Shown: positions 970 to 63,920, counted from the first letter of the stretch. The stretch is DNA of 64,000 bases from an uncultured Gammaproteobacteria bacterium (GCA_964566925.1 CAZMIZ010000004.1:35951-99950); one strand, 5' to 3'. Notes: generated by a model from the sequence alone, not told the origin. Numbers and translations are program-made.

Positions 970-2109
970 TTAAGCAATAAAGAAACCCCGAGTGAAAAGA
1001 GCGACCGAGATAATCAGCAGACCCCCGGCGATGAGCGGATAAACCGTCTTCAGCCAGCGGTATTTTTCTGACCAAAGACTAAGAAGAATGAAGCCAGGAA
1101 AGCAAACCAAGACATAACGAGGCAATGAAGAAAGTGTCCCGGTTAAAGTGGGCGTTAGATAGGCAAGAATCATAAAAGTGAAATAGGAGAGCCTTAAACG
1201 GAGATAAGCGAAAATTGAAAGAAATAAAAATAGGAGGCCAGTTAAAAATTCTAAAATAACGGTGAAATAAGTCGGAGTCATTTTCTCAACCGTCACCAAC
1301 ATCTTCAGATAGCGCCAAAAAACCTGATATAGAAGAATAATCTTGCCCCCAGTCCGCTGAGCTCCGAAAAACGGCTGAACATGAATGAAATAAAGAGGAT
1401 CACTCACCGTCTGTCTCAAGTACCCCATATAGATTAAAAGCCCCAAGCCAATCAAAAATAGAGGCAAAAGACTGGTTAATTTTTTCTTTTTCAATTTTTC
1501 GTTCTGCTGAAACCACTCGACCAGAAGAGCCGGAAATAAAAAAATGCCGATAAATCTGGTTGCGCTGGCCATCGCCCCTAAAACACCAGCCATACCCCAC
1601 TGACCTTTCCGAGCGGCATAAAAAGCGCCCAAAACCAGCAATAAAAATAGAGATTCCGTGTAAATACCGCCGAAGAAGAAGGAAGTAGGGAAAATAAGAA
1701 GGTAAAAAAGAACCCTCTTGGCTTGATTCTCCTTAAGATCTAATCTCGCTAGCTTATACAACAAAACCAGGGCAGCTAAAAAACAGAGGTGGGAAATCAA
1801 AAAACCTGAAAGGAGATAGTTTTTTACAAAAATCGCCAAAGAGCGCATCAGGTAGGGATAAAAAGGAAAAAAGGCCTGTTGAAACTGATAGTAGCCCCTC
1901 TCGGCGATGGTTAGATAATGAACGCCATCAAAATTTGCCCAAGACCAGAGGAAAGGATTTTTCAAATAGGCCCCCCTTCCTCCTCCTAGAAATCCCTCAC
2001 GCAAAGGGAAAAACTTGCTTCCCATCAAAGCAATCAAAATCAAAGCCACCCGCCAAATAATAAAGGCGGTTCCTATCCACTGGAGTAAAGCTTTAGTTTT
2101 CTTGGTCAT
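970..2109 (-). CDS. Polytopic membrane protein, possible GT-C mannosyltransferase (PIG-V/DUF2029-like)
   Basis: 379-aa ORF with multiple hydrophobic segments. Motif WANFDGVHYLTIAERGYYQFQQAFFPFYPYL resembles PIG-V/GT87-like mannosyltransferases. Confidence 0.45.
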   Translation of the reverse strand: MTKKTKALLQWIGTAFIIWRVALILIALMGSKFFPLREGFLGGGRGAYLKNPFLWSWANFDGVHYLTIAERGYYQFQQAFFPFYPYLMRSLAIFVKNYLLSGFLISHLCFLAALVLLYKLARLDLKENQAKRVLFYLLIFPTSFFFGGIYTESLFLLLVLGAFYAARKGQWGMAGVLGAMASATRFIGIFLFPALLVEWFQQNEKLKKKKLTSLLPLFLIGLGLLIYMGYLRQTVSDPLYFIHVQPFFGAQRTGGKIILLYQVFWRYLKMLVTVEKMTPTYFTVILEFLTGLLFLFLSIFAYLRLRLSYFTFMILAYLTPTLTGTLSSLPRYVLVCFPGFILLSLWSEKYRWLKTVYPLIAGGLLIISVALFTRGFFIA

Positions 2110-3151
2110 AAACTTTTTGGTAAACCTTAACTGTCTCTCGAGCGGTTTTCTCCCAACTAAACTTTTCTACTTGTTTTAACCCTTTCTTAACCAGTTTTTC
2201 TCTCAGTATTTTATCATTAAACACTTTTTTAATCCCCCGACCAATCTCTCTTCTCCGGTGGGGATTAACCATGACCGCGGCTCCCCCACAGATTTCTGGC
2301 AAGCTTGAAGTCTCGGCCGCAACTACCGGCGTTCCGCAAGCCATGGCCTCCAAAACTGGCAAACCAAAGCCTTCATAAAAAGAGGGTTGACAATAAACGG
2401 TGGCCAAATTATAGAGGGCCACTAAATCTTTTATTGGCACAAAGCCAATCCGGATAACATCAGGGTCCTTTCCATACAATTTAATTAATTGAACTAAAGG
2501 CTGATCTTCAATATGAGAAGAGTTAAAATTTTCCTGAGCGGCGGGTTTGCTAACAATGACAATTTTAATTTTCGCTTGTTTAGACGCCTCCACTAAACCT
2601 AAAACATTTTTATTATAATTAATATCGCCAACATAAAGAACAAACTTTTCTGGCAAGCTATATTTTTTCTTTAATCTTAATAATAACTTTCCCGACTTGA
2701 TTGGTTTAAACTCCTCTCCAGGCGCCAGATGAATAACCTTAATTCCTTTTTTAGGAAAACCGATAAATCGAACAATATCTTCTTTTGAATTTTGAGAATC
2801 AGTAATAATCGCCTTGGCTCCCTTTAAAGAATGCTTCTGGATCTGATATTTGGCGCTCCCCCGTAAGCCCTTAGGAAATTTATCAGGAAAAACCAGAGGA
2901 GTTAAATCATGAACGGTTACCACCGTCGGCCTAGACTTTTTTAAAGGTAAAGTCAACCAGAATAAGTCAAAGTAGGGATAGTGGATCAGATCAAATTGAT
3001 GATTGATGATTGATGATTGATGATTGATAAGAAAATACTCGTTTTTCTGATCATGTTTTTTTAATGATTCAACCAAGCACTTGGTATAAACTCCCACGCC
3101 CCGAAATTGATGGGAAGACTTTAGTGGAGAAATATCAATTGCCACTTTCAT
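2093..3151 (-). CDS. GT4 (group 1) glycosyltransferase
   Basis: Canonical GT4 C-terminal motif EGFGLPVLEAMACGTPVVAAETSSLPEICGGAAV. Contains an in-frame (ATTGATG)~5 repeat. Confidence 0.85.
   Translation of the reverse strand: MKVAIDISPLKSSHQFRGVGVYTKCLVESLKKHDQKNEYFLINHQSSIINHQFDLIHYPYFDLFWLTLPLKKSRPTVVTVHDLTPLVFPDKFPKGLRGSAKYQIQKHSLKGAKAIITDSQNSKEDIVRFIGFPKKGIKVIHLAPGEEFKPIKSGKLLLRLKKKYSLPEKFVLYVGDINYNKNVLGLVEASKQAKIKIVIVSKPAAQENFNSSHIEDQPLVQLIKLYGKDPDVIRIGFVPIKDLVALYNLATVYCQPSFYEGFGLPVLEAMACGTPVVAAETSSLPEICGGAAVMVNPHRRREIGRGIKKVFNDKILREKLVKKGLKQVEKFSWEKTARETVKVYQKVYDQEN
2995..3028. repeat. (ATTGATG)x~4.9 heptanucleotide tandem repeat inside the GT4 CDS (encodes INHQSSIINHQ)
   Basis: Read directly: attgatg attgatg attgatg attgatg attgat. 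Confidence 0.9.
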
Positions 3152-4653: not shown

Positions 4654-5515
4654 TCTGTTTTCCCCAATATTTAATGTAAGCCACTGTAAATCTTAAACCT
4701 GAAAACAAAGAAAAAACAAATCCCGGGAAGCCATCCATAAAACCTTTGTGGCGAAAGTAAGTCAAAAAAAACCAATGAAGCGGCTTGGCCAATAGATAAT
4801 CAAAACCGTTGATCAGTCCGATGTCAACCTTTTTCTCTTCCATTTCATTGACCATAAGATCGGTGTAGCGGTTAAACCTCAGACGATAACGGCTAAAATT
4901 AGGGTCAGCTAAATGAAGAAGGGCGTTTTGCAACCAACCTACTCTGCCATTAATCTTAATTTGTTCATGAACACTCTGGCACGGGAAACGAGCCTTTGAA
5001 TTTTTGACCAAACGGATCACTCCATCAGGGTAAACGCCACCATGGCGAAGATACCTGCCAAGAAAATAATTTAAGCGGGGGAGAAAAAAACCAACATACT
5101 CCCCCCTTTCTTGCCCAATCTTACCATCTCTTTTCTCAACAATCTCTTGATGCTTTAGAAACAACCGTCTTTGGGGCAATGTTTTTTGATATTCTTCGAT
5201 TTTGTCATCGTTCATCGAAAAAATCTTGAGAATCTCTTCAGCCAGTTTCGAGGTAACTCTCTCATCGGCATCCAGTTGCAAAATCCACTCTCCTTTGCAA
5301 GCATCAACCGCCATCTGTTTGTTGATATGAAAAATAGGCTTATTAGTAGTTTTAATGACCCTGGCCCCGTGTTTTCTGGCTATCTCTCTAGTTTTGTCTT
5401 GCGAGCTCCCATCAACAACAATCATCTCATCCGCCAGCTGGTGAACTGACTCCAAGCAAGGACCAATGTTTTCTTCCTCATTAAAAGTAGCGATGGCCAC
5501 CGAAATTTTTTTCAT
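4643..5515 (-). CDS. GT2 glycosyltransferase (paralog group with 19198 and 23539)
   Basis: MKKISVAIATFNEEENI...VVDGSSQDKT...LDADE, and C-terminal motif HGGVYPDGVIRLVKNSKARFPCQSVHEQ. Start taken at MKKISV; the ORF extends to 5527. Confidence 0.8.
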   Translation of the reverse strand: MKKISVAIATFNEEENIGPCLESVHQLADEMIVVDGSSQDKTREIARKHGARVIKTTNKPIFHINKQMAVDACKGEWILQLDADERVTSKLAEEILKIFSMNDDKIEEYQKTLPQRRLFLKHQEIVEKRDGKIGQERGEYVGFFLPRLNYFLGRYLRHGGVYPDGVIRLVKNSKARFPCQSVHEQIKINGRVGWLQNALLHLADPNFSRYRLRFNRYTDLMVNEMEEKKVDIGLINGFDYLLAKPLHWFFLTYFRHKGFMDGFPGFVFSLFSGLRFTVAYIKYWGKQNEN

Positions 5516-14919: not shown

Positions 14920-15839
14920 ACTTTCCCCCTGACCCTAGAATTGATTAGTTCTGGCAGTTGAGCCAGGGCCTTTCCCAGGCCTAACCAGAACAAGAAATCA
15001 GTAGAGAAGGTCGCTCTGATTAAGTGATACGGAAGCCAAAACAAATGGGGAATCAACATCTCTAAATTCGCGTTTTTCCAGACAAACAAAAATTGGTTCT
15101 TATAACCAAAAACTTTCATTTCTTTCTGACCAAATGTAGGGATATTGGTGGTTTCATGTCGGTGGTTAACCCTTGATCCTGGCTCAAAGACAACCCTCCA
15201 ACCTCTTTTTCTTGCCCGCCATGATAAATCAATGTCTTCCCAATAAGCGGGTCGGAAGAGAGGGTCCATTCCACCGAGTTTGAGCCATTTCTCTCGCTCA
15301 ACCGCCATACTGCCGGCAGTGGCCCAAAGAGTATCCCTTTTGTTTTGATCTTTAGCCCGCCAATGAACCAAAAACCCTCGTTTAAACTCTCCCAATCCCC
15401 GTCCACTATAAACCACTTTTCCATTTCTAATGTCTTTCTCTTTACAACCAACAGCAAAAACTAGAGAATCTTCAAAGTGTTTTAAAAGGGGTTCTAAAAA
15501 AGCTGGCTCCGGAGAGACGTCATTATTAAGAAGGACAACAATTTCTCCTTTGGCCGCTTTTACCCCAGTGTTACAAGCGGCCGCAAAGCGCTGGTTTTTT
15601 TGATGAACCATCACTCTAACTTGAGGATAATTCTTTTTTAAAAAGGTAACACTCCCGTCAGTGGAAGCATCATCAACCACAATAATTTCCCAACCTGCCT
15701 CGCCTGCCTTATCAACTGGCGGGTTGGATTTTGACCAGGTCTGACAGGCTTTGATCACCGCTGGCAAGTTTTTCTTCAAGAGTTCCTTGCCGTTGAAGTT
15801 GGGAATAACCAGACTGACTTTAATACCAGCCATATTCAA
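14916..15839 (-). CDS. GT2 glycosyltransferase (WbbL/rhamnosyltransferase-like)
   Basis: VSLVIPNFNGKELL...IIVVDDASTDGS...VLLNNDV. Alternative start at MAGIKV (15833). Confidence 0.75.
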   Translation of the reverse strand: MNMAGIKVSLVIPNFNGKELLKKNLPAVIKACQTWSKSNPPVDKAGEAGWEIIVVDDASTDGSVTFLKKNYPQVRVMVHQKNQRFAAACNTGVKAAKGEIVVLLNNDVSPEPAFLEPLLKHFEDSLVFAVGCKEKDIRNGKVVYSGRGLGEFKRGFLVHWRAKDQNKRDTLWATAGSMAVEREKWLKLGGMDPLFRPAYWEDIDLSWRARKRGWRVVFEPGSRVNHRHETTNIPTFGQKEMKVFGYKNQFLFVWKNANLEMLIPHLFWLPYHLIRATFSTDFLFWLGLGKALAQLPELINSRVRGKV

Positions 15840-18159
15840 AAGTTACTTGATGATTTCCTTCCGGGACAATCACTCCCCGGAAATTATAATCGGCCCGATA
15901 AATTTGAGTTCCTTGGCCGTCAATTTTTGCTTGCCAGCCGGGGTAAAAAGAATCAGTTAAAACCAAAATCCCTGACTGGCTGGTTTCCACCTCAATAAGA
16001 ACCTTGTTTTCTTCATAATCCAGAATGGCTACTTTATTTTCGCCTTTAACCAAACCCGTTTCAGGCTGATCGCTTTCCAAAATGACTGTCTCTCTTAAAT
16101 CAATCCCTTCATTCATTAATAAATCAATCGCTTCTTGCTTATCTTTAGCTAGTTGATATTGGTAAACTATAAAAGCCCGAGGAAAAACATTTTGGTTCTG
16201 ATAAACCTTAGTTTGGCCCTCTTCAAAAACCTTAACCCATTTAGGCGAATCTTCCTCATCTAGGCTTAAAAGATATTTAGTATTCAAAAGATCGATAATT
16301 CTTGATTCGTAATTATGAGGAGTAATAATTCGATTAAATCCAAATGGTGGTTCAATGTTGGCCTCTCCCCTTTCTGAGGCGGCGATGAGCTCAGCGTAGC
16401 GAGAAAGATACAAGGGATCATACCCTTCTATCGTTTGAAGCCTATAAGGAATTGAGAAATTGGGGGCCAAAAGACGGCGATCGGTGGTCATCAAGCGGAA
16501 AACGTCTTGATCTTTTTTCAAAAATTCAACCGTCTCGGTTGAAGGAAAAAGCCATTCTTCTTTAACAAAAGGAGTAAATTTCCAACCAAAACGGAGAAGG
16601 TCGAAGATGGTCAATAAGACAATTCCTATTAGAATTAAGAGTCGAGAATAACGAATTATGAATCTCTTTTTTTTGAATAGTTTCGGGGTTAACCAGCTGG
16701 CCACCATCAAACCAGCCAAGCCAGCAAAGATGGCCGTTGGCAAGATAAGGTTTCTTTGACTAACCGCCAAATTAACTACCCATGGAGCCTCTGGCCAAAT
16801 CTTTTTTGCTCCTAAAACAAAAAGCCATAAGAGACCATAAAAAATAGAAAATGGGATTAGGGTTAAGATTATTTTCCCCCAAGAGATTTTCTTTTTCAGA
16901 AAGGCATCGACGCCCAAGGCAGCCAAAACGGCGAGACAAAAATCAACGATAAAGAGCAGCCTAGTCGGTTGGCTAGTAGAAATCAACGGTAAGTTTAGCC
17001 AGTAGGGCAATTTTGCCCAGGGCGTGGGTAAAGCAAAACTTAAAAACAAAAAAACTAAGAAACTAAAGAATAAGGTTGTTTTATCGCGTCGCCAGATGAT
17101 AGCTAAAAAAGCAAAAATTAAAGGAATCACCCCCAGATATCCCAGGAACTCGGCGTAATTAAAAATCCCCCAATAATTCAAGGTGGTTGGGTTGCCAAAA
17201 AAATCAGGTGCTAAGAATTGAACTAGGTTTTGCCAAGGAATAAACCAGCCAGGTTGATTGAATTGAGACTGATCGATCTCTCTGGCGCTCAATTTAATAA
17301 ATTGAAGAGTGGGTAACCACTGGATTGAGGTAAGCAAAAGGAATAATGAATAAAGAAAACAGAACAGAAGAATTAGTTTGCGGCGATCTTTTTTAGTTTG
17401 GAGTAATCGCCAAACTAAATAGATAATCGAAAATAAAACTAAATAAAAAGAGGTCTGTAAATGGCCAGCCAAAAAAGAGACTGTAAGAGAAAAAACAAAG
17501 ACCAAACCCCAAAGTAGTAAATTTCCACTTTTACTTAATACTTGAGACTTAATACTTAAGACTATCTTGTCGATGGCCAGCAAAATTAAAGGCATCCATA
17601 AGGCCACCTGAAGAACCGTTCCCCATTCGAGCCAGGCAATAAAAAAGCCGGAAAGCGAAAAACTGATTGCCCCCAGAAAAGCGGCCAGCTTTTCTAGCTT
17701 TAGCTGGCGAAGATAAGCATAAAGGAAAAAGCCGGCCAAAAGCGGCTGAAGGAAAATTAGGCCACTCCAAGCCAAATTAAAAGGTAAAACAAAAAATAAA
17801 ATATTCAGAGGGTAAAAAACGGCCCCTTGAAGATTGGCTAAGAGTGGTCCCCCAGCTAAGGTATAAGGATTCCATAAAGGCAGTTGGCCCTGGGAAATTA
17901 AATCAATCCCTAACTCCCGCCAGGGATATTGTTGGCGCACCGGATCAGTGATTAGAAAATTTTTAAAAGGCACCCCGGCGGTGAAATTATCCCAGACAAC
18001 ATCTCTCCAGGGATGATACATGCCCACAATCGTGTCGGCTGGAAGAGGCAAGAGGCCACCAAGTAAAAATTGATGGAAAAAAATCGCCACTACTAGGCCG
18101 ATGAGGATTATCGACCAATGAGCAACGATCAAACTTTTAAGGCTTGATAATTTCATCAA
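15820..18159 (-). CDS. YfhO-family polytopic membrane protein (paralog 2)
   Basis: QYPWRELGIDLISQGQLPLWNPYTLAGGPLLANLQGAVFYPLN. Confidence 0.8.
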   Translation of the reverse strand: MMKLSSLKSLIVAHWSIILIGLVVAIFFHQFLLGGLLPLPADTIVGMYHPWRDVVWDNFTAGVPFKNFLITDPVRQQYPWRELGIDLISQGQLPLWNPYTLAGGPLLANLQGAVFYPLNILFFVLPFNLAWSGLIFLQPLLAGFFLYAYLRQLKLEKLAAFLGAISFSLSGFFIAWLEWGTVLQVALWMPLILLAIDKIVLSIKSQVLSKSGNLLLWGLVFVFSLTVSFLAGHLQTSFYLVLFSIIYLVWRLLQTKKDRRKLILLFCFLYSLFLLLTSIQWLPTLQFIKLSAREIDQSQFNQPGWFIPWQNLVQFLAPDFFGNPTTLNYWGIFNYAEFLGYLGVIPLIFAFLAIIWRRDKTTLFFSFLVFLFLSFALPTPWAKLPYWLNLPLISTSQPTRLLFIVDFCLAVLAALGVDAFLKKKISWGKIILTLIPFSIFYGLLWLFVLGAKKIWPEAPWVVNLAVSQRNLILPTAIFAGLAGLMVASWLTPKLFKKKRFIIRYSRLLILIGIVLLTIFDLLRFGWKFTPFVKEEWLFPSTETVEFLKKDQDVFRLMTTDRRLLAPNFSIPYRLQTIEGYDPLYLSRYAELIAASERGEANIEPPFGFNRIITPHNYESRIIDLLNTKYLLSLDEEDSPKWVKVFEEGQTKVYQNQNVFPRAFIVYQYQLAKDKQEAIDLLMNEGIDLRETVILESDQPETGLVKGENKVAILDYEENKVLIEVETSQSGILVLTDSFYPGWQAKIDGQGTQIYRADYNFRGVIVPEGNHQVTFEYGWY

Positions 18160-27055: not shown

Positions 27056-28684
27056 CTAGTTCAAGTCTTGTCCCGCAGATAAAGGAAGAAAAAAGCCGAA
27101 TTTTTGGATTTCTTCAATCTGTTCGGGTTGAAGGTTGTCTAGCTTGTCTCTTCTCATTAACAAAGGCGAGGGATCATTCCCCTGGCGTAACTGGATGTAA
27201 TCAGCCACCACCGGATCAAAAACGCTTTTGGCGGCCTCGCCAACACTAGAGTATTCATAATAAACAAAAACAGGAGGGTTTCCCTCTAGGTCGTTTTTAA
27301 TTTCGTTTTTTAATCCTTCATTCCAGAAAATCCATTCATAGTAATAAAGAAAGCGATTTTGAGGACTAAGACCGCTAACAAAATACAAAAGCTGTTCAAC
27401 GGGAATCACCATTAGCTTATCATTGCTAGAAGCAAGGTTTCTAATCGCCTGGCCGGTTCCCTCTAAATAAGAAAAGTTCACCCAAAAATCGCGATAATAA
27501 TCCGGTTGGCGAAAATATTCTCTAAAGAAAAACTGGCCGGTAAAGGCAAAAATTAAAATCATCAGAATTAAACCGGCGAAGGTTAGAGTTCTTTTTTTAA
27601 CCGACTGCCAATTCAGCAAGAAAACCCTTTTAATTTGAAGAATAGTCAGGATGATTATCGCGGCCCACCAGGGGAAGCCATGAAAGCCTTCATACAAAAC
27701 CGCTTGAGGATAGACCAAGCGCAAACTGGTGGTCCCGAGCAGAAAAAAACTAAAAACCAGGAATAATTTCTTTTTCTTTTCTTTAAAAAGTAAATACACA
27801 AAGCTGAGAAGGTAAAAACCACACCAGATTTTGGCAAAAAGGCCAAAATCTCCCTTGACAGGCTCAATCAGGGCGATAACCGGCTTTAAAAAAGAATAGG
27901 CCAAAAGACGAGATGCCCCTTGATTGGCGGTATCTTCAAGATAATGGCTGGTGAGTGCCGCCTTAGTATTAAGAAAATATTCTTGATAGCTAACAAGAGG
28001 AGAAAAGAGAAGGAAAAGGAAACCAAAAAAAAGAATTAGGGGGAGGACGATTTTCTTATGAAATTTCTCCCTGACAAGAAGATAGAAAATCAGGATCGCG
28101 GAAAAAGGGATCAGAATAATCAACTGGAAAGGAATTAAAACCAAACTAAAGAGAAAGAGGTATCGCCCCCAGCTATTAATCGGCCCCTTGGCTAACTCTT
28201 TTTTCCAAAGATAGGCAAGAACAAAGGCAAGAGGGTAAATTACCAGCGACTCGCCCAAAAAAAGATCGCCCAACAAAAGCCTTTTTATCAGCTCTATCAC
28301 CAGAGAAAAAGTGAGACCAGCGGCGCCGAAAAAATAAAGAAACCCCAGCCACCAGAGAACCGAATAAAAGAAAACCGCCTCCCGGTGTCTTTTAATAAGG
28401 AGAAACAAAGAATTAGGCTTTAAGGTCTTATTAATTAAGGCGCTGAAAGCCGCGGGCATCGGCTGTTTGTGGGAAAAAATATCAGCGTAAAGTTTCTGGC
28501 CTTGGGCCAGATAATGGCCAGCCATCAAATTTTCGTCTTCGTCAACAAAATGAGTGTTAAACATATGAGACTGAAGCGTCCGGAAAGCAAAAAAGACCAA
28601 ACCAAAAAAAATGATAACCAAGAATATTTTTTTTAATAAAGAAAGATCAGCTGAAGATTTTTTTAGCACCCAACCCCCCTCCAA
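27056..28684 (-). CDS. Large polytopic membrane protein, unknown
   Basis: 542 aa, many TM segments. N-terminal region HFVDEDENLMAGHYLAQGQKLYADIFSHKQPMP. Confidence 0.4.
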   Translation of the reverse strand: MEGGWVLKKSSADLSLLKKIFLVIIFFGLVFFAFRTLQSHMFNTHFVDEDENLMAGHYLAQGQKLYADIFSHKQPMPAAFSALINKTLKPNSLFLLIKRHREAVFFYSVLWWLGFLYFFGAAGLTFSLVIELIKRLLLGDLFLGESLVIYPLAFVLAYLWKKELAKGPINSWGRYLFLFSLVLIPFQLIILIPFSAILIFYLLVREKFHKKIVLPLILFFGFLFLLFSPLVSYQEYFLNTKAALTSHYLEDTANQGASRLLAYSFLKPVIALIEPVKGDFGLFAKIWCGFYLLSFVYLLFKEKKKKLFLVFSFFLLGTTSLRLVYPQAVLYEGFHGFPWWAAIIILTILQIKRVFLLNWQSVKKRTLTFAGLILMILIFAFTGQFFFREYFRQPDYYRDFWVNFSYLEGTGQAIRNLASSNDKLMVIPVEQLLYFVSGLSPQNRFLYYYEWIFWNEGLKNEIKNDLEGNPPVFVYYEYSSVGEAAKSVFDPVVADYIQLRQGNDPSPLLMRRDKLDNLQPEQIEEIQKFGFFLPLSAGQDLN

Positions 28685-30374
28685 CCAAAACGATCGCCGC
28701 TAATAAGGAAACCAAGTTGGCTAAACTGCGCACCGGCGTGTCGGTAAAGACGACCTCGACCTGATGTTCCCCTTCAGGAACATCCAAACTGATCAGTTTC
28801 AACTTACCTGATTCCTGAATCCCAATCTCTTCTTGATCAAGAAAAGCTTTCCAGCCGGGAAAATTATAAACATTAACTCTCAATTCTCCTTGACCTTTTG
28901 TGGTCAAGATTTTTTGATGAGGAAAGTCTTTAACTACTTCAACTTCTAAATCGCCGGTTAAGGCTTGATAGGCTGTCTTGCCAATTCCCTCCTCGGCGAT
29001 ATCCAGCTGGGTGGTACCAATATCAGATAATCTGGTGGCCACTCCTTTGGGAACAAATTCAAAAGAAAGCCCGCTCACTCGCCATTTCAAATCCTTTTCA
29101 GAAGTATAATCACGATCACCAACTTCAAGATAATCAGCAGGCTGAAAATAGGCCTGATTTGAAAAGATAACCAAAACTAAAGGAACTAAAACCGCTCCCC
29201 ACTGAAGAACTCTTTTCCCTTTAAGCTGCTTAAAAATGAAATTGACGCCTCCACCCACAAGCAGAGAAGAAAAAAAGGCGGCTAAGATCAGAAAACGCCA
29301 GGGAAACTGAAGATACCAAAGAGGCTGAATTCGATCCCAGATTAGCTGGGAACGAAAACTGGTCATGAAGAGGGAAAGAATAAAGAATAAAGAATAAAGA
29401 ATAAAGAATAAGCCAGTCTTTTTTCTTTTCAAAAGTAAATAAGGGCCCAAAATACTTGCTAAGAAGCTTAAAATTAGGTGGAGTTTGCCCACTTCGAAGG
29501 AAATCCCGTCCTCCAAGCCCATGATTGAACCACCATAACCCCAGGGGGAATCCCAAAGCTGGCGCAGGTAAACAAAATGAAGCTTATAGTTGGCCAGCTC
29601 ACCGGTCAAAATGGTATCCACTAAGGTTTCTTTCTTCTCCCAAAGGGCTGGCAACCAAAAATAACAGGTAAGGCCTAAAAACAAGATAAACGACACCGAG
29701 ACTAACCAAACTGCTCTTTTCTTTACTTTCTCAAAGAAAAGAAAGAAGAGAACGAAGGCAAAATAAAAGGGCATCAGGATCAGGGCAATGAAGTTATGGC
29801 TTAAAAGCAGAAGAGATAAAAAAAGACTATTGATTATCAACCATTTAATGTTTTTTCTTTTAATCAGCTTGAAGGTTGACCAAAAAACAGCCGGCAAAAA
29901 AACAAAAGTGTAGAATTCGGCAAAGGCACCCCGGACATAAAGATCTAGGGCGTGATACGGTGCATAAATGTAAAAAGCGGCCGCCCCTAAACCGCCAACT
30001 TTCCCAAAAAATTCTTTGGCCAAAAGATAAATAAAAATCCCGGAAAGGATAAACCCCAACCCCATAACGATTTTAGTCGAAACAATTAAGGAAAAACCAA
30101 GCCAATAAAAAATCTCGCCTAAATAATAAACTAAGGGAGGGTAAAAGTTAAAAAGAGGATAGCCATACCCAAAGCCTAAATTCCCTACCCAGCGAGGTGG
30201 AAACTGACCGCCAGTTAAAGCCTGATCAAGTTCGTAAAGTCGAGCAATCTGCTCATCATCATGCATCGGGAAAAAACCGGGAAGAAGGAGAGGTCTAATC
30301 GCCCAAAAAGATAAAAGGAGAATGGCTAACAGCCACCAATGGTTTTTAATTAGAGCGCTTAATCTATTCTTCAT
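28647..30374 (-). CDS. Large polytopic membrane protein, family 'A' paralog 2
   Basis: LLLPGFFPMHDDEQIARLYELDQALTGGQFPPRWVGNLGFGYGYPLFNFYPP. Contains an in-frame (AAAGAAT)5 repeat. Confidence 0.5.
   Translation of the reverse strand: MKNRLSALIKNHWWLLAILLLSFWAIRPLLLPGFFPMHDDEQIARLYELDQALTGGQFPPRWVGNLGFGYGYPLFNFYPPLVYYLGEIFYWLGFSLIVSTKIVMGLGFILSGIFIYLLAKEFFGKVGGLGAAAFYIYAPYHALDLYVRGAFAEFYTFVFLPAVFWSTFKLIKRKNIKWLIINSLFLSLLLLSHNFIALILMPFYFAFVLFFLFFEKVKKRAVWLVSVSFILFLGLTCYFWLPALWEKKETLVDTILTGELANYKLHFVYLRQLWDSPWGYGGSIMGLEDGISFEVGKLHLILSFLASILGPYLLLKRKKTGLFFILYSLFFILSLFMTSFRSQLIWDRIQPLWYLQFPWRFLILAAFFSSLLVGGGVNFIFKQLKGKRVLQWGAVLVPLVLVIFSNQAYFQPADYLEVGDRDYTSEKDLKWRVSGLSFEFVPKGVATRLSDIGTTQLDIAEEGIGKTAYQALTGDLEVEVVKDFPHQKILTTKGQGELRVNVYNFPGWKAFLDQEEIGIQESGKLKLISLDVPEGEHQVEVVFTDTPVRSLANLVSLLAAIVLVGGGLGAKKIFS
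29375..29412. repeat. (AAAGAAT)x5.4 heptanucleotide tandem repeat inside the family-A membrane protein CDS (encodes FFILYSLFFILSLF)
   Basis: Read directly: aaagaat x5 + aag. Confidence 0.9.
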
Positions 30375-63540: not shown

Positions 63541-63832
63541 ACTTTGGTTCTGCTAGCTTCCCGACTTTTTGGTTGTTAATGGGAATCTTTAAAGCCCAGC
63601 CTAAAGCATTGGCCACCGAAATCCCCACTCTTAAACCAGTAAATGATCCCGGCCCCAGATTAACCTTAATCTCCTTAATCTGTTTAAGCGAAACCCGGCT
63701 CTTTTTCAAAACTTGATCAATTTCGGCCAACAACTGTTGGCTTCGATGTTCTTTGGCCGTAAAGGTCCAGGTCTTTTTATCCAACCCTATTATAGTTTTT
63801 TTATTATCGGATGTGTCAAGAAAGAGAATCAT
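63533..63832 (-). CDS. tsaB: TsaB/YeaZ-like protein, N-terminal half only (99 aa)
   Basis: MILFLDTSDNKKTIIGL...NLGPGSFTGLRVGISVANALGWALKIP. It ends where full-length TsaB would continue, and overlaps galE by 8 nt. Confidence 0.55.
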   Translation of the reverse strand: MILFLDTSDNKKTIIGLDKKTWTFTAKEHRSQQLLAEIDQVLKKSRVSLKQIKEIKVNLGPGSFTGLRVGISVANALGWALKIPINNQKVGKLAEPKYE

Positions 63833-63920
63833 AATTAATGACTAATGATTAATGACTGATGACTGATGATTGATGAATTCGACCATTAATCATTGATCAT
63901 CGATCATTAATCATTAATTT
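63833..63920. repeat. Imperfect palindromic array of YTRATGA heptamers (6 direct + ~4.5 inverted) around an EcoRI-like centre GAATTC
   Basis: ttaatga ctaatga ttaatga ctgatga ctgatga ttgatga attcgacc attaatc attgatc atcgatc attaatc attaat. Confidence 0.8.

Follow-up and report, generated by a model that had tools for sequence, protein, structure and literature searches.

A heptanucleotide repeat within the coding sequence of a surface-glycan enzyme raises the question of whether the gene can be turned off and on by changes in repeat number. Such a repeat occurs in a 64,000-nucleotide (nt) stretch of DNA (CAZMIZ010000004.1:35951-99950), referred to throughout as the window, in which a perfect array of ATTGATG occupies positions 2995-3028 inside a gene for a predicted GT4 glycosyltransferase. 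A preliminary description of the window proposed this array as a candidate phase-variation switch. Considered alone, the locus is an ordinary-looking candidate of that kind, and its interest lies in the lineage-wide context. Sequence comparisons show that heptamer arrays occur repeatedly at equivalent permissive positions in orthologous genes: the number of units is conserved, and the units themselves are lineage-specific and internally homogenised. The balance of the evidence tilts toward the tract being a slippage-active, in-frame, selectively constrained microsatellite, one member of a lineage-wide Microgenomates class of arrays of about five units (30-38 nt).

The array and its host gene

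The features on which the argument depends are the following.

2093-3151, minus strand: GT4 gene of GT-B fold and retaining type, 352 amino acids (aa), host of the array (Pfam, AlphaFold2 (AF2) model, Foldseek)
2995-3028, minus strand: heptanucleotide array (ATCAATC)x4.9, in frame (Tandem Repeats Finder (TRF), sequence, translation)
2982-2994, minus strand: flank TTGATCTGATCC, codons F-D-L-I of the conserved FDLIHYPYF motif (sequence, simulated alleles)

The tract was reported by TRF with period 7, 4.9 copies, 100% matches, no indels and a score of 68. On the coding strand it consists of four ATCAATC units followed by ATCAAT, a total of 34 nt at gene nt 124-157, and codons 42-53 yield the peptide INHQSSIINHQ in the context ...EYFL-INHQSSIINHQ-FDLIHYPYF.... 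TRF, translation and Pfam thus bear out the preliminary description of a perfect repeat of about five ATTGATG units that is currently in frame with the GT4 gene. Repetition to this extent is far beyond chance. In 200 first-order Markov shuffles of the window, no period-7 tract with three or more copies arose. Additionally, the 14-mer ATTGATGATTGATG, when up to two mismatches are allowed, has nine matches in the window against 0.62 expected, a number reached in none of 100 shuffles.

The 352-aa product matches both Glycos_transf_1 (PF00534; 98 bits, E=4.5e-28) and Glyco_transf_4 (PF13439; 45 bits, E=1.2e-11). A Foldseek search with its AF2 model returned MshA (E = 1e-18, template modelling score 0.77), BshA, PimA and other retaining GT-B enzymes. 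With both Pfam domains and a predicted GT-B fold of two Rossmann domains, the protein is assigned to GT4. The mean predicted local distance difference test score of the model is 91.4, and it dips to 76 over residues 41-50, between neighbouring blocks at 91-95. In the model, residues 42-53, which are those encoded by the array, join strand 38-42 to strand 55-58 of the N-terminal Rossmann-like domain and include a short helix at 46-49. The same stretch is gap-rich and variable between conserved blocks in an alignment of 46 homologues. The array is predicted to be translated as a tolerant surface connection of the N-terminal domain.

Changes in unit number have severe consequences in simulated alleles. 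Loss of two or one units, or gain of one or two, gives products of 48, 52, 55 and 59 aa, respectively, in agreement with the earlier expectation that a single-unit change would frameshift the gene after about 50 codons. Slips that are not multiples of three units stop within four codons of the tract because the flank TTGATCTGATCC carries TGA in both alternative frames. Loss or gain of three units keeps the frame and gives products of 345 or 359 aa.

Orthologous arrays at the same loop

Relatives of the gene were drawn from 163 related loci in genomes and metagenomes, together with several contigs found by exact protein look-up. All 163 loci belong to Patescibacteria of the Microgenomates type (Levyi-, Woese-, Shapiro-, Gottesmanbacteria and others). 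No GT4 sequence from the same species was found in public data, where the protein is known from a single 111-kb NCBI contig and stands alone in its cluster. Its next-best relative is 72% identical, and scans of genomes and metagenomes for a near-identical GT4 sequence gave no match above 61%.

Arrays are present at the loop of the window array, here called loop 1, in several of these relatives. The units of the most readily aligned cases are as follows.

Window: ATCAATC x5, perfect
L166: ATCGATC ATCGATC ATCAGTC ATCGATC ATCAAT
L003: ATCAATC AGCAATC AGCAGTC ATCAATC AGCAAT
L164/L165: ACCAGTC ACCAGTC ACTAGTC ACTAGTC ACCAGT

In the DNA alignment each of these has exactly five units in one common register. 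Unit positions 2 and 5 differ from the window in all five units of L164. Such array-wide differences are beyond independent substitution, and the units have therefore been homogenised in each lineage by concerted evolution. Orthologues of 50-55% identity carry perfect arrays of unrelated-looking units at the same loop, AAAACTC x4.9 in L009 and CATACAA x4.9 in L100, and an AAATTGG array is found there in four further loci (L012, L128, L137 and L153). Concerted evolution at the loop in turn indicates that slippage or homogenisation acts at the GT4 site.

The peptides INHQSSIINHQ, INQQSAVINQQ, IDHRSSVIDHQ and TSHQSLVTSHQ keep the same length in homologues that are 53-72% identical. The preliminary description had considered that conservation at the amino-acid level in distant homologues would speak against a switch, and this retention of peptide length is a result of that kind. 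Judged from the aligned sequences, the conservation of loop 1 is that of an evolving array and not of a fixed peptide.

An array of the same type elsewhere in the window provides the cleanest case of the same site and the same count with a different unit.

29375-29411, minus strand: second perfect array, (TTATTCT)x5.3, 37 nt, in frame (TRF, open reading frame (ORF), Pfam, orthologues)

This array encodes part of a transmembrane helix (LFFILYSLFFILSLF) in a 575-aa GT-C-like membrane protein (ORF 28647-30374; Pfam PTPS_related and PMT_2). Its orthologues bear TTGCTTT x5.4 (L167, 77% identical) and TTACTTT x5 (L168, 64% identical) on the same codons. Each of the three is perfect and all are equally long, with units one to three substitutions apart. 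Together with loop 1, these orthologous arrays represent a clear natural case of concerted evolution of coding microsatellites under constraint on frame and length.

The same evidence bears on the simplest alternative, that the repeat is a recent and inert duplication, neutral, of no raised mutability and perfect by happenstance. The array is short, and its copy number is identical in comparisons between strains, as an inert repeat would require. However, different perfect units on the same codons in orthologues 64-77% identical, as well as the array-wide fixed differences at loop 1, need repeated homogenisation, and the excess of period 7 across the class is not attainable by chance. The pattern of concerted evolution strongly disfavours an inert repeat, which would seem a very improbable explanation.

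Loop 1 carries an array in about 12 of 135 orthologues. The possibility that the remaining orthologues contain decayed arrays was rejected, since no leftover 7-nt periodicity or lag-7 signal was detected at loop 1 in the array-less sequences. Likewise, the arrays were rejected as 7-aa insertions because loop and helix lengths are equal with or without them.

Two further observations concern this loop. Short in-frame palindromes of 21-35 nt, GC-rich in otherwise AT-rich GT4 orthologues, sit midway through the loop-1 heptamer region, for example ...ENLPVRQTGWDLKIG..., at the following positions.

L126 3142-3162; L146 3144-3164; L147 889-909; L086 3157-3191: GC-rich palindromic segments

They look like tiny hairpin insertions that the loop may tolerate. 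In addition, P0120 and P0127, near-identical GT4 proteins of one 90% protein cluster, diverge only across an N-terminal module some 80 residues long, which has the ENWKLKIGNFD loop type in one and the IDHRSSVIDHQFD type in the other. This difference points to recombinational exchange of the segment that bears the array. Both proteins also possess a second array-derived peptide, HRSSIINHRSSII, near residue 230.

A lineage-wide class of period-7 arrays

The window tract is not an isolated case. Among perfect tracts of at least three copies in 922 kb of related loci, 39 have period 7, in comparison with three, one, one and none for periods 5, 6, 8 and 9-12, respectively. TRF analysis of 989 kb of non-redundant Microgenomates DNA found 89 period-7 arrays versus 10, 9 and 3 for periods 8, 9 and 10, and no more than 10 for any other period. 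Period 7 thus accounts for 89 of about 120 tandem arrays, or about three quarters, at a density of roughly one per 11 kb. In this lineage, period-7 arrays far exceed both neighbouring periods and chance. Array sizes cluster between 4.1 and 5.7 units, most often 4.6-4.9, and only three of the 89 arrays exceed six units. The unit sequences are very diverse and comprise dozens of different heptamers.

The 89 arrays divide into 74 coding arrays (about 83%) and 15 at gene junctions, and the clustering of unit counts is seen in both groups. All of the coding arrays are in frame within long ORFs, while those at junctions cover the stop codon of the preceding gene and reach up to the start codon of the following one. 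Arrays occupy protein N-termini and membrane helices as well as loops and gene junctions. The roughly 160 GT4 orthologues carry 35 arrays, which map to four places on the AF2 model (residues 41-54, 149-162, 189-198 and 222-231), each a loop or a helix end. The window tract represents the first of these. With 4.9 units, an intact frame and a recurrent permissive site, it fits the class. Peptide runs at lags 8 and 10 were also examined in the GT4 family as candidate arrays and rejected as coincidences of conserved motifs.

Hosts of the glycan type include GT4, GT2, PIG-V-like, PMT_2 and PTPS_related/YfhO proteins, in which the array often specifies a membrane helix following a basic loop. The preliminary description had called repeats of this kind a hallmark of contingency loci for surface glycans in other bacteria. 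The window gene and most other hosts are indeed involved in glycosylation, but the present class is not restricted to glycan genes: arrays also occur at the N-terminus of a PNP_UDP_1 phosphorylase, in a B12/radical-SAM enzyme and, rarely, in ClpC.

The phosphorylase array is an AATCACC array of 6.9 units (TRF) at L114 4840-4886, directly after the ATG of an MTAP-like member of the PNP_UDP_1 family and before its catalytic domain, and the orthologue in L096 has a decayed copy. Both L114 and L096 also contain stop-rich heptamer arrays immediately beyond the upstream gene's stop codon. Another orthologous hot spot is the PIG-V-like membrane protein downstream of GT4, in which arrays follow a conserved WWQQNK motif in many genomes.

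L102/L104 ~4700-4780; L026 4678-4709; L019 4661-4694; L105 4641-4673; L141 4644-4680; L009 4674-4729: arrays in PIG-V-like genes

The units at this site differ between genomes, and one array has 8.1 copies. The PIG-V-like orthologue in the window (970-2109) has EWFQQNEKLKKKKL at the WWQQNK site and no clear array.

The junction arrays raise the possibility that the arrays act as nucleic acids, as binding or structural sites in DNA or mRNA (for a translation-related or regulatory protein, for instance), a role that has been proposed for the TAACTGA repeats of the Beggiatoaceae, with the coding copies tolerated or co-opted. The size of about five units (~34 nt) is constant whether or not an array is coding, and the 15 junction arrays are placed exactly on the upstream stop and against the next start. 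A related unit forms an inverted pair near the end of the window.

63836-63918, no strand assigned: two heptamer arrays of about five units each, an inverted pair (TAATGAC/TGATGAT..., ATTAATC/ATTGATC...) (TRF, 14-mer matches, ORFs, Pfam, RNA fold)

These units match the GT4 14-mer with one or two mismatches and contain stops in all frames. The pair lies directly upstream of a tsaB-like ATG at 63832, with no obvious Shine-Dalgarno sequence in between, and its minus-strand RNA is predicted to fold into a long hairpin (-34.8 kcal/mol, z = -6.3). This placement is like that of the TAACTGA junction repeats of the Beggiatoaceae, which likewise have 2-6 copies (PMC4679880). In contrast, dozens of heptamers fit poorly with a single sequence-specific binder, and the coding arrays match local amino-acid needs, being T-rich in membrane helices and polar in loops. 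An Rfam search of the whole window gave no family match, so a known RNA family was rejected. A function at the level of nucleic acid is therefore considered improbable.

Copy number, reading frame and switching

If the tract were an adaptive contingency switch, slippage by one unit would reversibly silence GT4, and perhaps many further glycosylation genes with arrays, in part of the population, and so diversify the surface glycans of a regulator-poor episymbiont in its encounters with hosts or phages. Much about the locus is compatible with this proposal. The repeat is perfect, its unit length is not a multiple of three, and it lies about 42-53 codons into the gene with immediate stops in both other frames. 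The concerted evolution of the units would reflect active slippage, and perfect arrays persist. The GT4 gene is also located within a co-directional glycosylation cluster that spans at least the first 40 kb of the window and includes PMT_2, YfhO, PTPS_related, GT2 and GT4 genes. By Pfam annotation, positions 1 to ~50000 form an unusually long and almost unbroken minus-strand glycosylation cluster, in which genes for at least 10 GT-C-type membrane proteins (PMT_2, YfhO, PTPS_related, PIG-V-like and DUF2079) occur together with several of the GT2 and GT4 families, a flippase gene and genes for sugar-nucleotide enzymes. Moreover, translated heptanucleotides have precedents in NeuO (PMC3046976) and in the simple sequence repeats (SSRs) of Haemophilus influenzae (PMC2651432).

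The distribution of alleles does not follow this expectation. Across the 989 kb, no gene interruption was found at any of the 89 period-7 arrays, about 40 of which lie in genes that played no part in retrieving the loci; this count rests on metagenome consensus and hence on the majority allele, with the GT4 loci retrieved by homology to an intact protein. Every array seen is in the intact state as far as this majority allele is concerned. All GT4 loop-1 arrays are in frame with five units, so that comparison of copy number between related genomes, which the preliminary description had suggested as a check, returned the same five units in all array-bearing relatives. Four strains of one GT4 orthologue with flanks 94-97% identical have the same array, and the same 4.9-unit array is shared, in a gene neighbouring GT4, by a pair of strains at 93.4% identity (49 mismatches over 837 nt). 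In all, the arrays were identical in three strain-level comparisons with flanks 93-97% identical.

Within the 90% protein clusters of array-bearing homologues, no variants of plus or minus 7 aa were found. An 85-aa cluster member is a contig-end fragment, and a 357-aa member reflects a recombined N-terminal module and not a change in repeat number. The Logan contig L170 (SRR14817123), which is 100% identical to the window and stems from an independent k-mer assembly of the sample behind it, ends at 29382, inside the 37-nt array. This break was rejected as evidence of heterogeneity, because a node-centric de Bruijn graph with k=31 predicts a break at that k-mer. Specifically, a period-7 tract of at least 37 nt (k+6) makes the k=31 graph cycle, and no heterogeneity is needed. 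A look-up for a Logan contig beyond the second array (29375-29411) found nothing, no other locus ends inside an array, and L169, the contig beside the GT4 gene, has its start at 2345, well away from the GT4 array. It follows from the graph that period-7 tracts of this length or more will systematically fragment short-k assemblies, and annotators should expect frameshifts and k-mer assembly breaks at arrays of this class.

Thus, the absence of OFF alleles among 89 arrays and of copy-number differences between closely related strains counts against a switch, as does the fixed number of about five units across orthologues, when proven switches have wide ranges (2-93 copies in NeuO and 13-38 in hmw). 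Five units are also short for a high switching rate, and arrays are found in mid-gene and C-terminal positions, in transmembrane helices and in housekeeping enzymes. The part of the original proposal that stands is an in-frame heptanucleotide SSR in a GT4 gene of a glycosylation cluster, null upon unit change and mutationally active; switching itself was not seen, with neither copy-number variation nor OFF alleles among the relatives and strains compared. An adaptive contingency switch at GT4 is accordingly a minority reading and doubtful on present evidence. A broader form of the proposal, about equally doubtful, is a genome-wide Microgenomates heptanucleotide 'phasome', in which arrays would be selected at conserved sites of glycosyltransferases and other genes to give reversible knock-outs in minority subpopulations, and with them stochastic diversity of surface glycans in regulator-poor episymbionts; the array at 2995-3028 would be one such switch.

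A constrained microsatellite, the reading favoured here, would operate in the following way. Whole-unit replication slippage or unequal exchange at the arrays would be far more frequent than point substitution, and single-unit events would produce transient frameshift null alleles. These nulls would be purged or would revert, with repeated loss and gain making the units uniform. The five-unit allele would remain the population majority through purifying selection on reading frame and on the length of the loop or helix. The tract would then be a low-level, reversible mutational hot spot that results from a lineage-specific 7-nt slippage bias, and not a switch dedicated to GT4.

Several points weigh against this interpretation. 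First, 40% of the arrays lie in the GT4 family, which contributes 17.5% of the sampled bases (binomial p = 3e-7), although the sampled DNA consists mostly of glycan clusters. Similarly, lag-7 peptide runs number 15 in 42,200 residues of GT4 and 3 in 96,607 residues of ClpC homologues of the same lineage, a difference of about 11-fold (Fisher p = 5e-6). This enrichment, about 3-fold over neighbouring genes, is in keeping with a switch and could reflect selection for mutability instead of tolerance. Second, concerted evolution at a constant count implies repeated intermediates that are frameshifted or altered by three units, which is in itself raw phase-variable behaviour. Third, substitutions that interrupt the repeat would be expected to eliminate a purely deleterious hot spot, yet perfect arrays persist at the same sites over deep divergence. 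Fourth, the size of about five units is also found at gene junctions, where selection on reading frame cannot explain it. Finally, array-bearing loops are no longer than array-less ones, so that an origin by expansion and insertion does not fit.

The pattern as a whole implies either a 7-nt-specific process of slippage or homogenisation or selection for mutability in candidate-phyla bacteria, and neither was found described for this group in the open-access literature searched. Minority frameshift alleles, if present, would bear on surface-glycan variation in uncultured organisms with small genomes.

Comparison with known heptanucleotide repeats

The closest precedent for a translated array is NeuO of Escherichia coli K1, encoded by the CUS-3 prophage, in which the repeat 5'-AAGACTC-3' lies near the 5' end of the coding sequence for a capsule O-acetyltransferase (PMC3046976). 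Three units encode each RLKTQDS heptad of its poly-psi domain, the gene is ON only when the frame is kept, and slipped-strand mispairing has been proposed as the cause (PMC3046976). The repeat starts 2 nt after the start codon and has 2-93 copies among isolates, with the number of heptads tuning activity (PMC3046976). Like NeuO, the window array is a translated heptanucleotide in the ORF of a surface-glycan enzyme, here a predicted GT4, and counts that break the frame truncate the product. In contrast, the GT4 array is internal (codons 42-53), lies in a loop of a folded domain and has about five units in all array-bearing relatives. Unlike the poly-psi domain, it forms no N-terminal variable extension, and no ON/OFF or length polymorphism was observed in the GT4 relatives. 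Another glycosyltransferase with a coding heptanucleotide repeat is PglE of Neisseria, encoded by pglE.

The example of NeuO also suggests tuning at the protein level, whereby changes of three units would adjust the length of the loop and so affect acceptor binding or activity. As in NeuO, whose activity scales with the number of its heptads (PMC3046976), three units make up a period of seven residues, and the loop belongs to the acceptor-side N-terminal domain in the AF2 model. However, no 2-unit or 8-unit variant, as expected from such changes, was found at the GT4 loop in any orthologue, and the loop is of equal length with or without an array. Tuning of this type is thus highly unlikely.

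In H. influenzae, heptanucleotide SSRs include TGAAAGA in the hmw1A/hmw2A promoters, AATTTTG in hmw1a and AACAACC in a TonB-dependent receptor gene (PMC2651432, PMC8262952). These tracts usually have 6-38 units and vary between strains, with out-of-frame alleles ascribed to changes in repeat length (PMC2651432, PMC8262952). The Microgenomates arrays share the 7-nt unit and, for some of the H. influenzae tracts, an intragenic position, and in H. influenzae such repeats are treated as mediators of phase variation. In contrast, arrays of the GT4 class are usually shorter, and neither strain differences nor out-of-frame alleles were seen.

The TAACTGA heptamer repeats of marine Beggiatoaceae, cyanobacteria and Bacteroidetes are distributed genome-wide in 2-6 copies, and their function is unknown (PMC4679880). 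Many lie at gene junctions, over the upstream stop and before the next start, and a minority are translated at the protein periphery (PMC4679880). The few copies, genome-wide distribution and junction placement are common to the Microgenomates arrays. However, the TAACTGA arrays consist of one unit and are mostly intergenic, whereas those of Microgenomates comprise dozens of units, lie in frame within coding sequence in about 83% of cases and, at orthologous sites, undergo concerted evolution.

More generally, heptameric SSRs are reportedly over-represented in many bacteria, with a polymerase footprint or slippage proposed as the cause (Mrazek 2007, as cited in PMC4692102). Here, too, period 7 stands out from neighbouring periods. 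Described examples, among them the G-rich heptamers of cyanobacteria and Xanthomonas, are mainly intergenic, in contrast to the mostly coding arrays of Microgenomates. In the open-access literature searched, no description was found of SSRs, heptamers or phase variation in the Candidate Phyla Radiation (Patescibacteria), nor of a pattern of coding heptamers with conserved sites and fixed counts. The class-wide heptamer pattern therefore appears to be undescribed for candidate-phyla bacteria.

A decayed array in the window

One more heptamer array was identified within the glycosylation cluster.

17533-17563, minus strand: five-unit heptamer array in a decayed state (79% matches), with a higher-order period of 14 nt (TRF, Pfam, translation)

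It is in frame within the ORF of a YfhO-like membrane protein (15820-18159).

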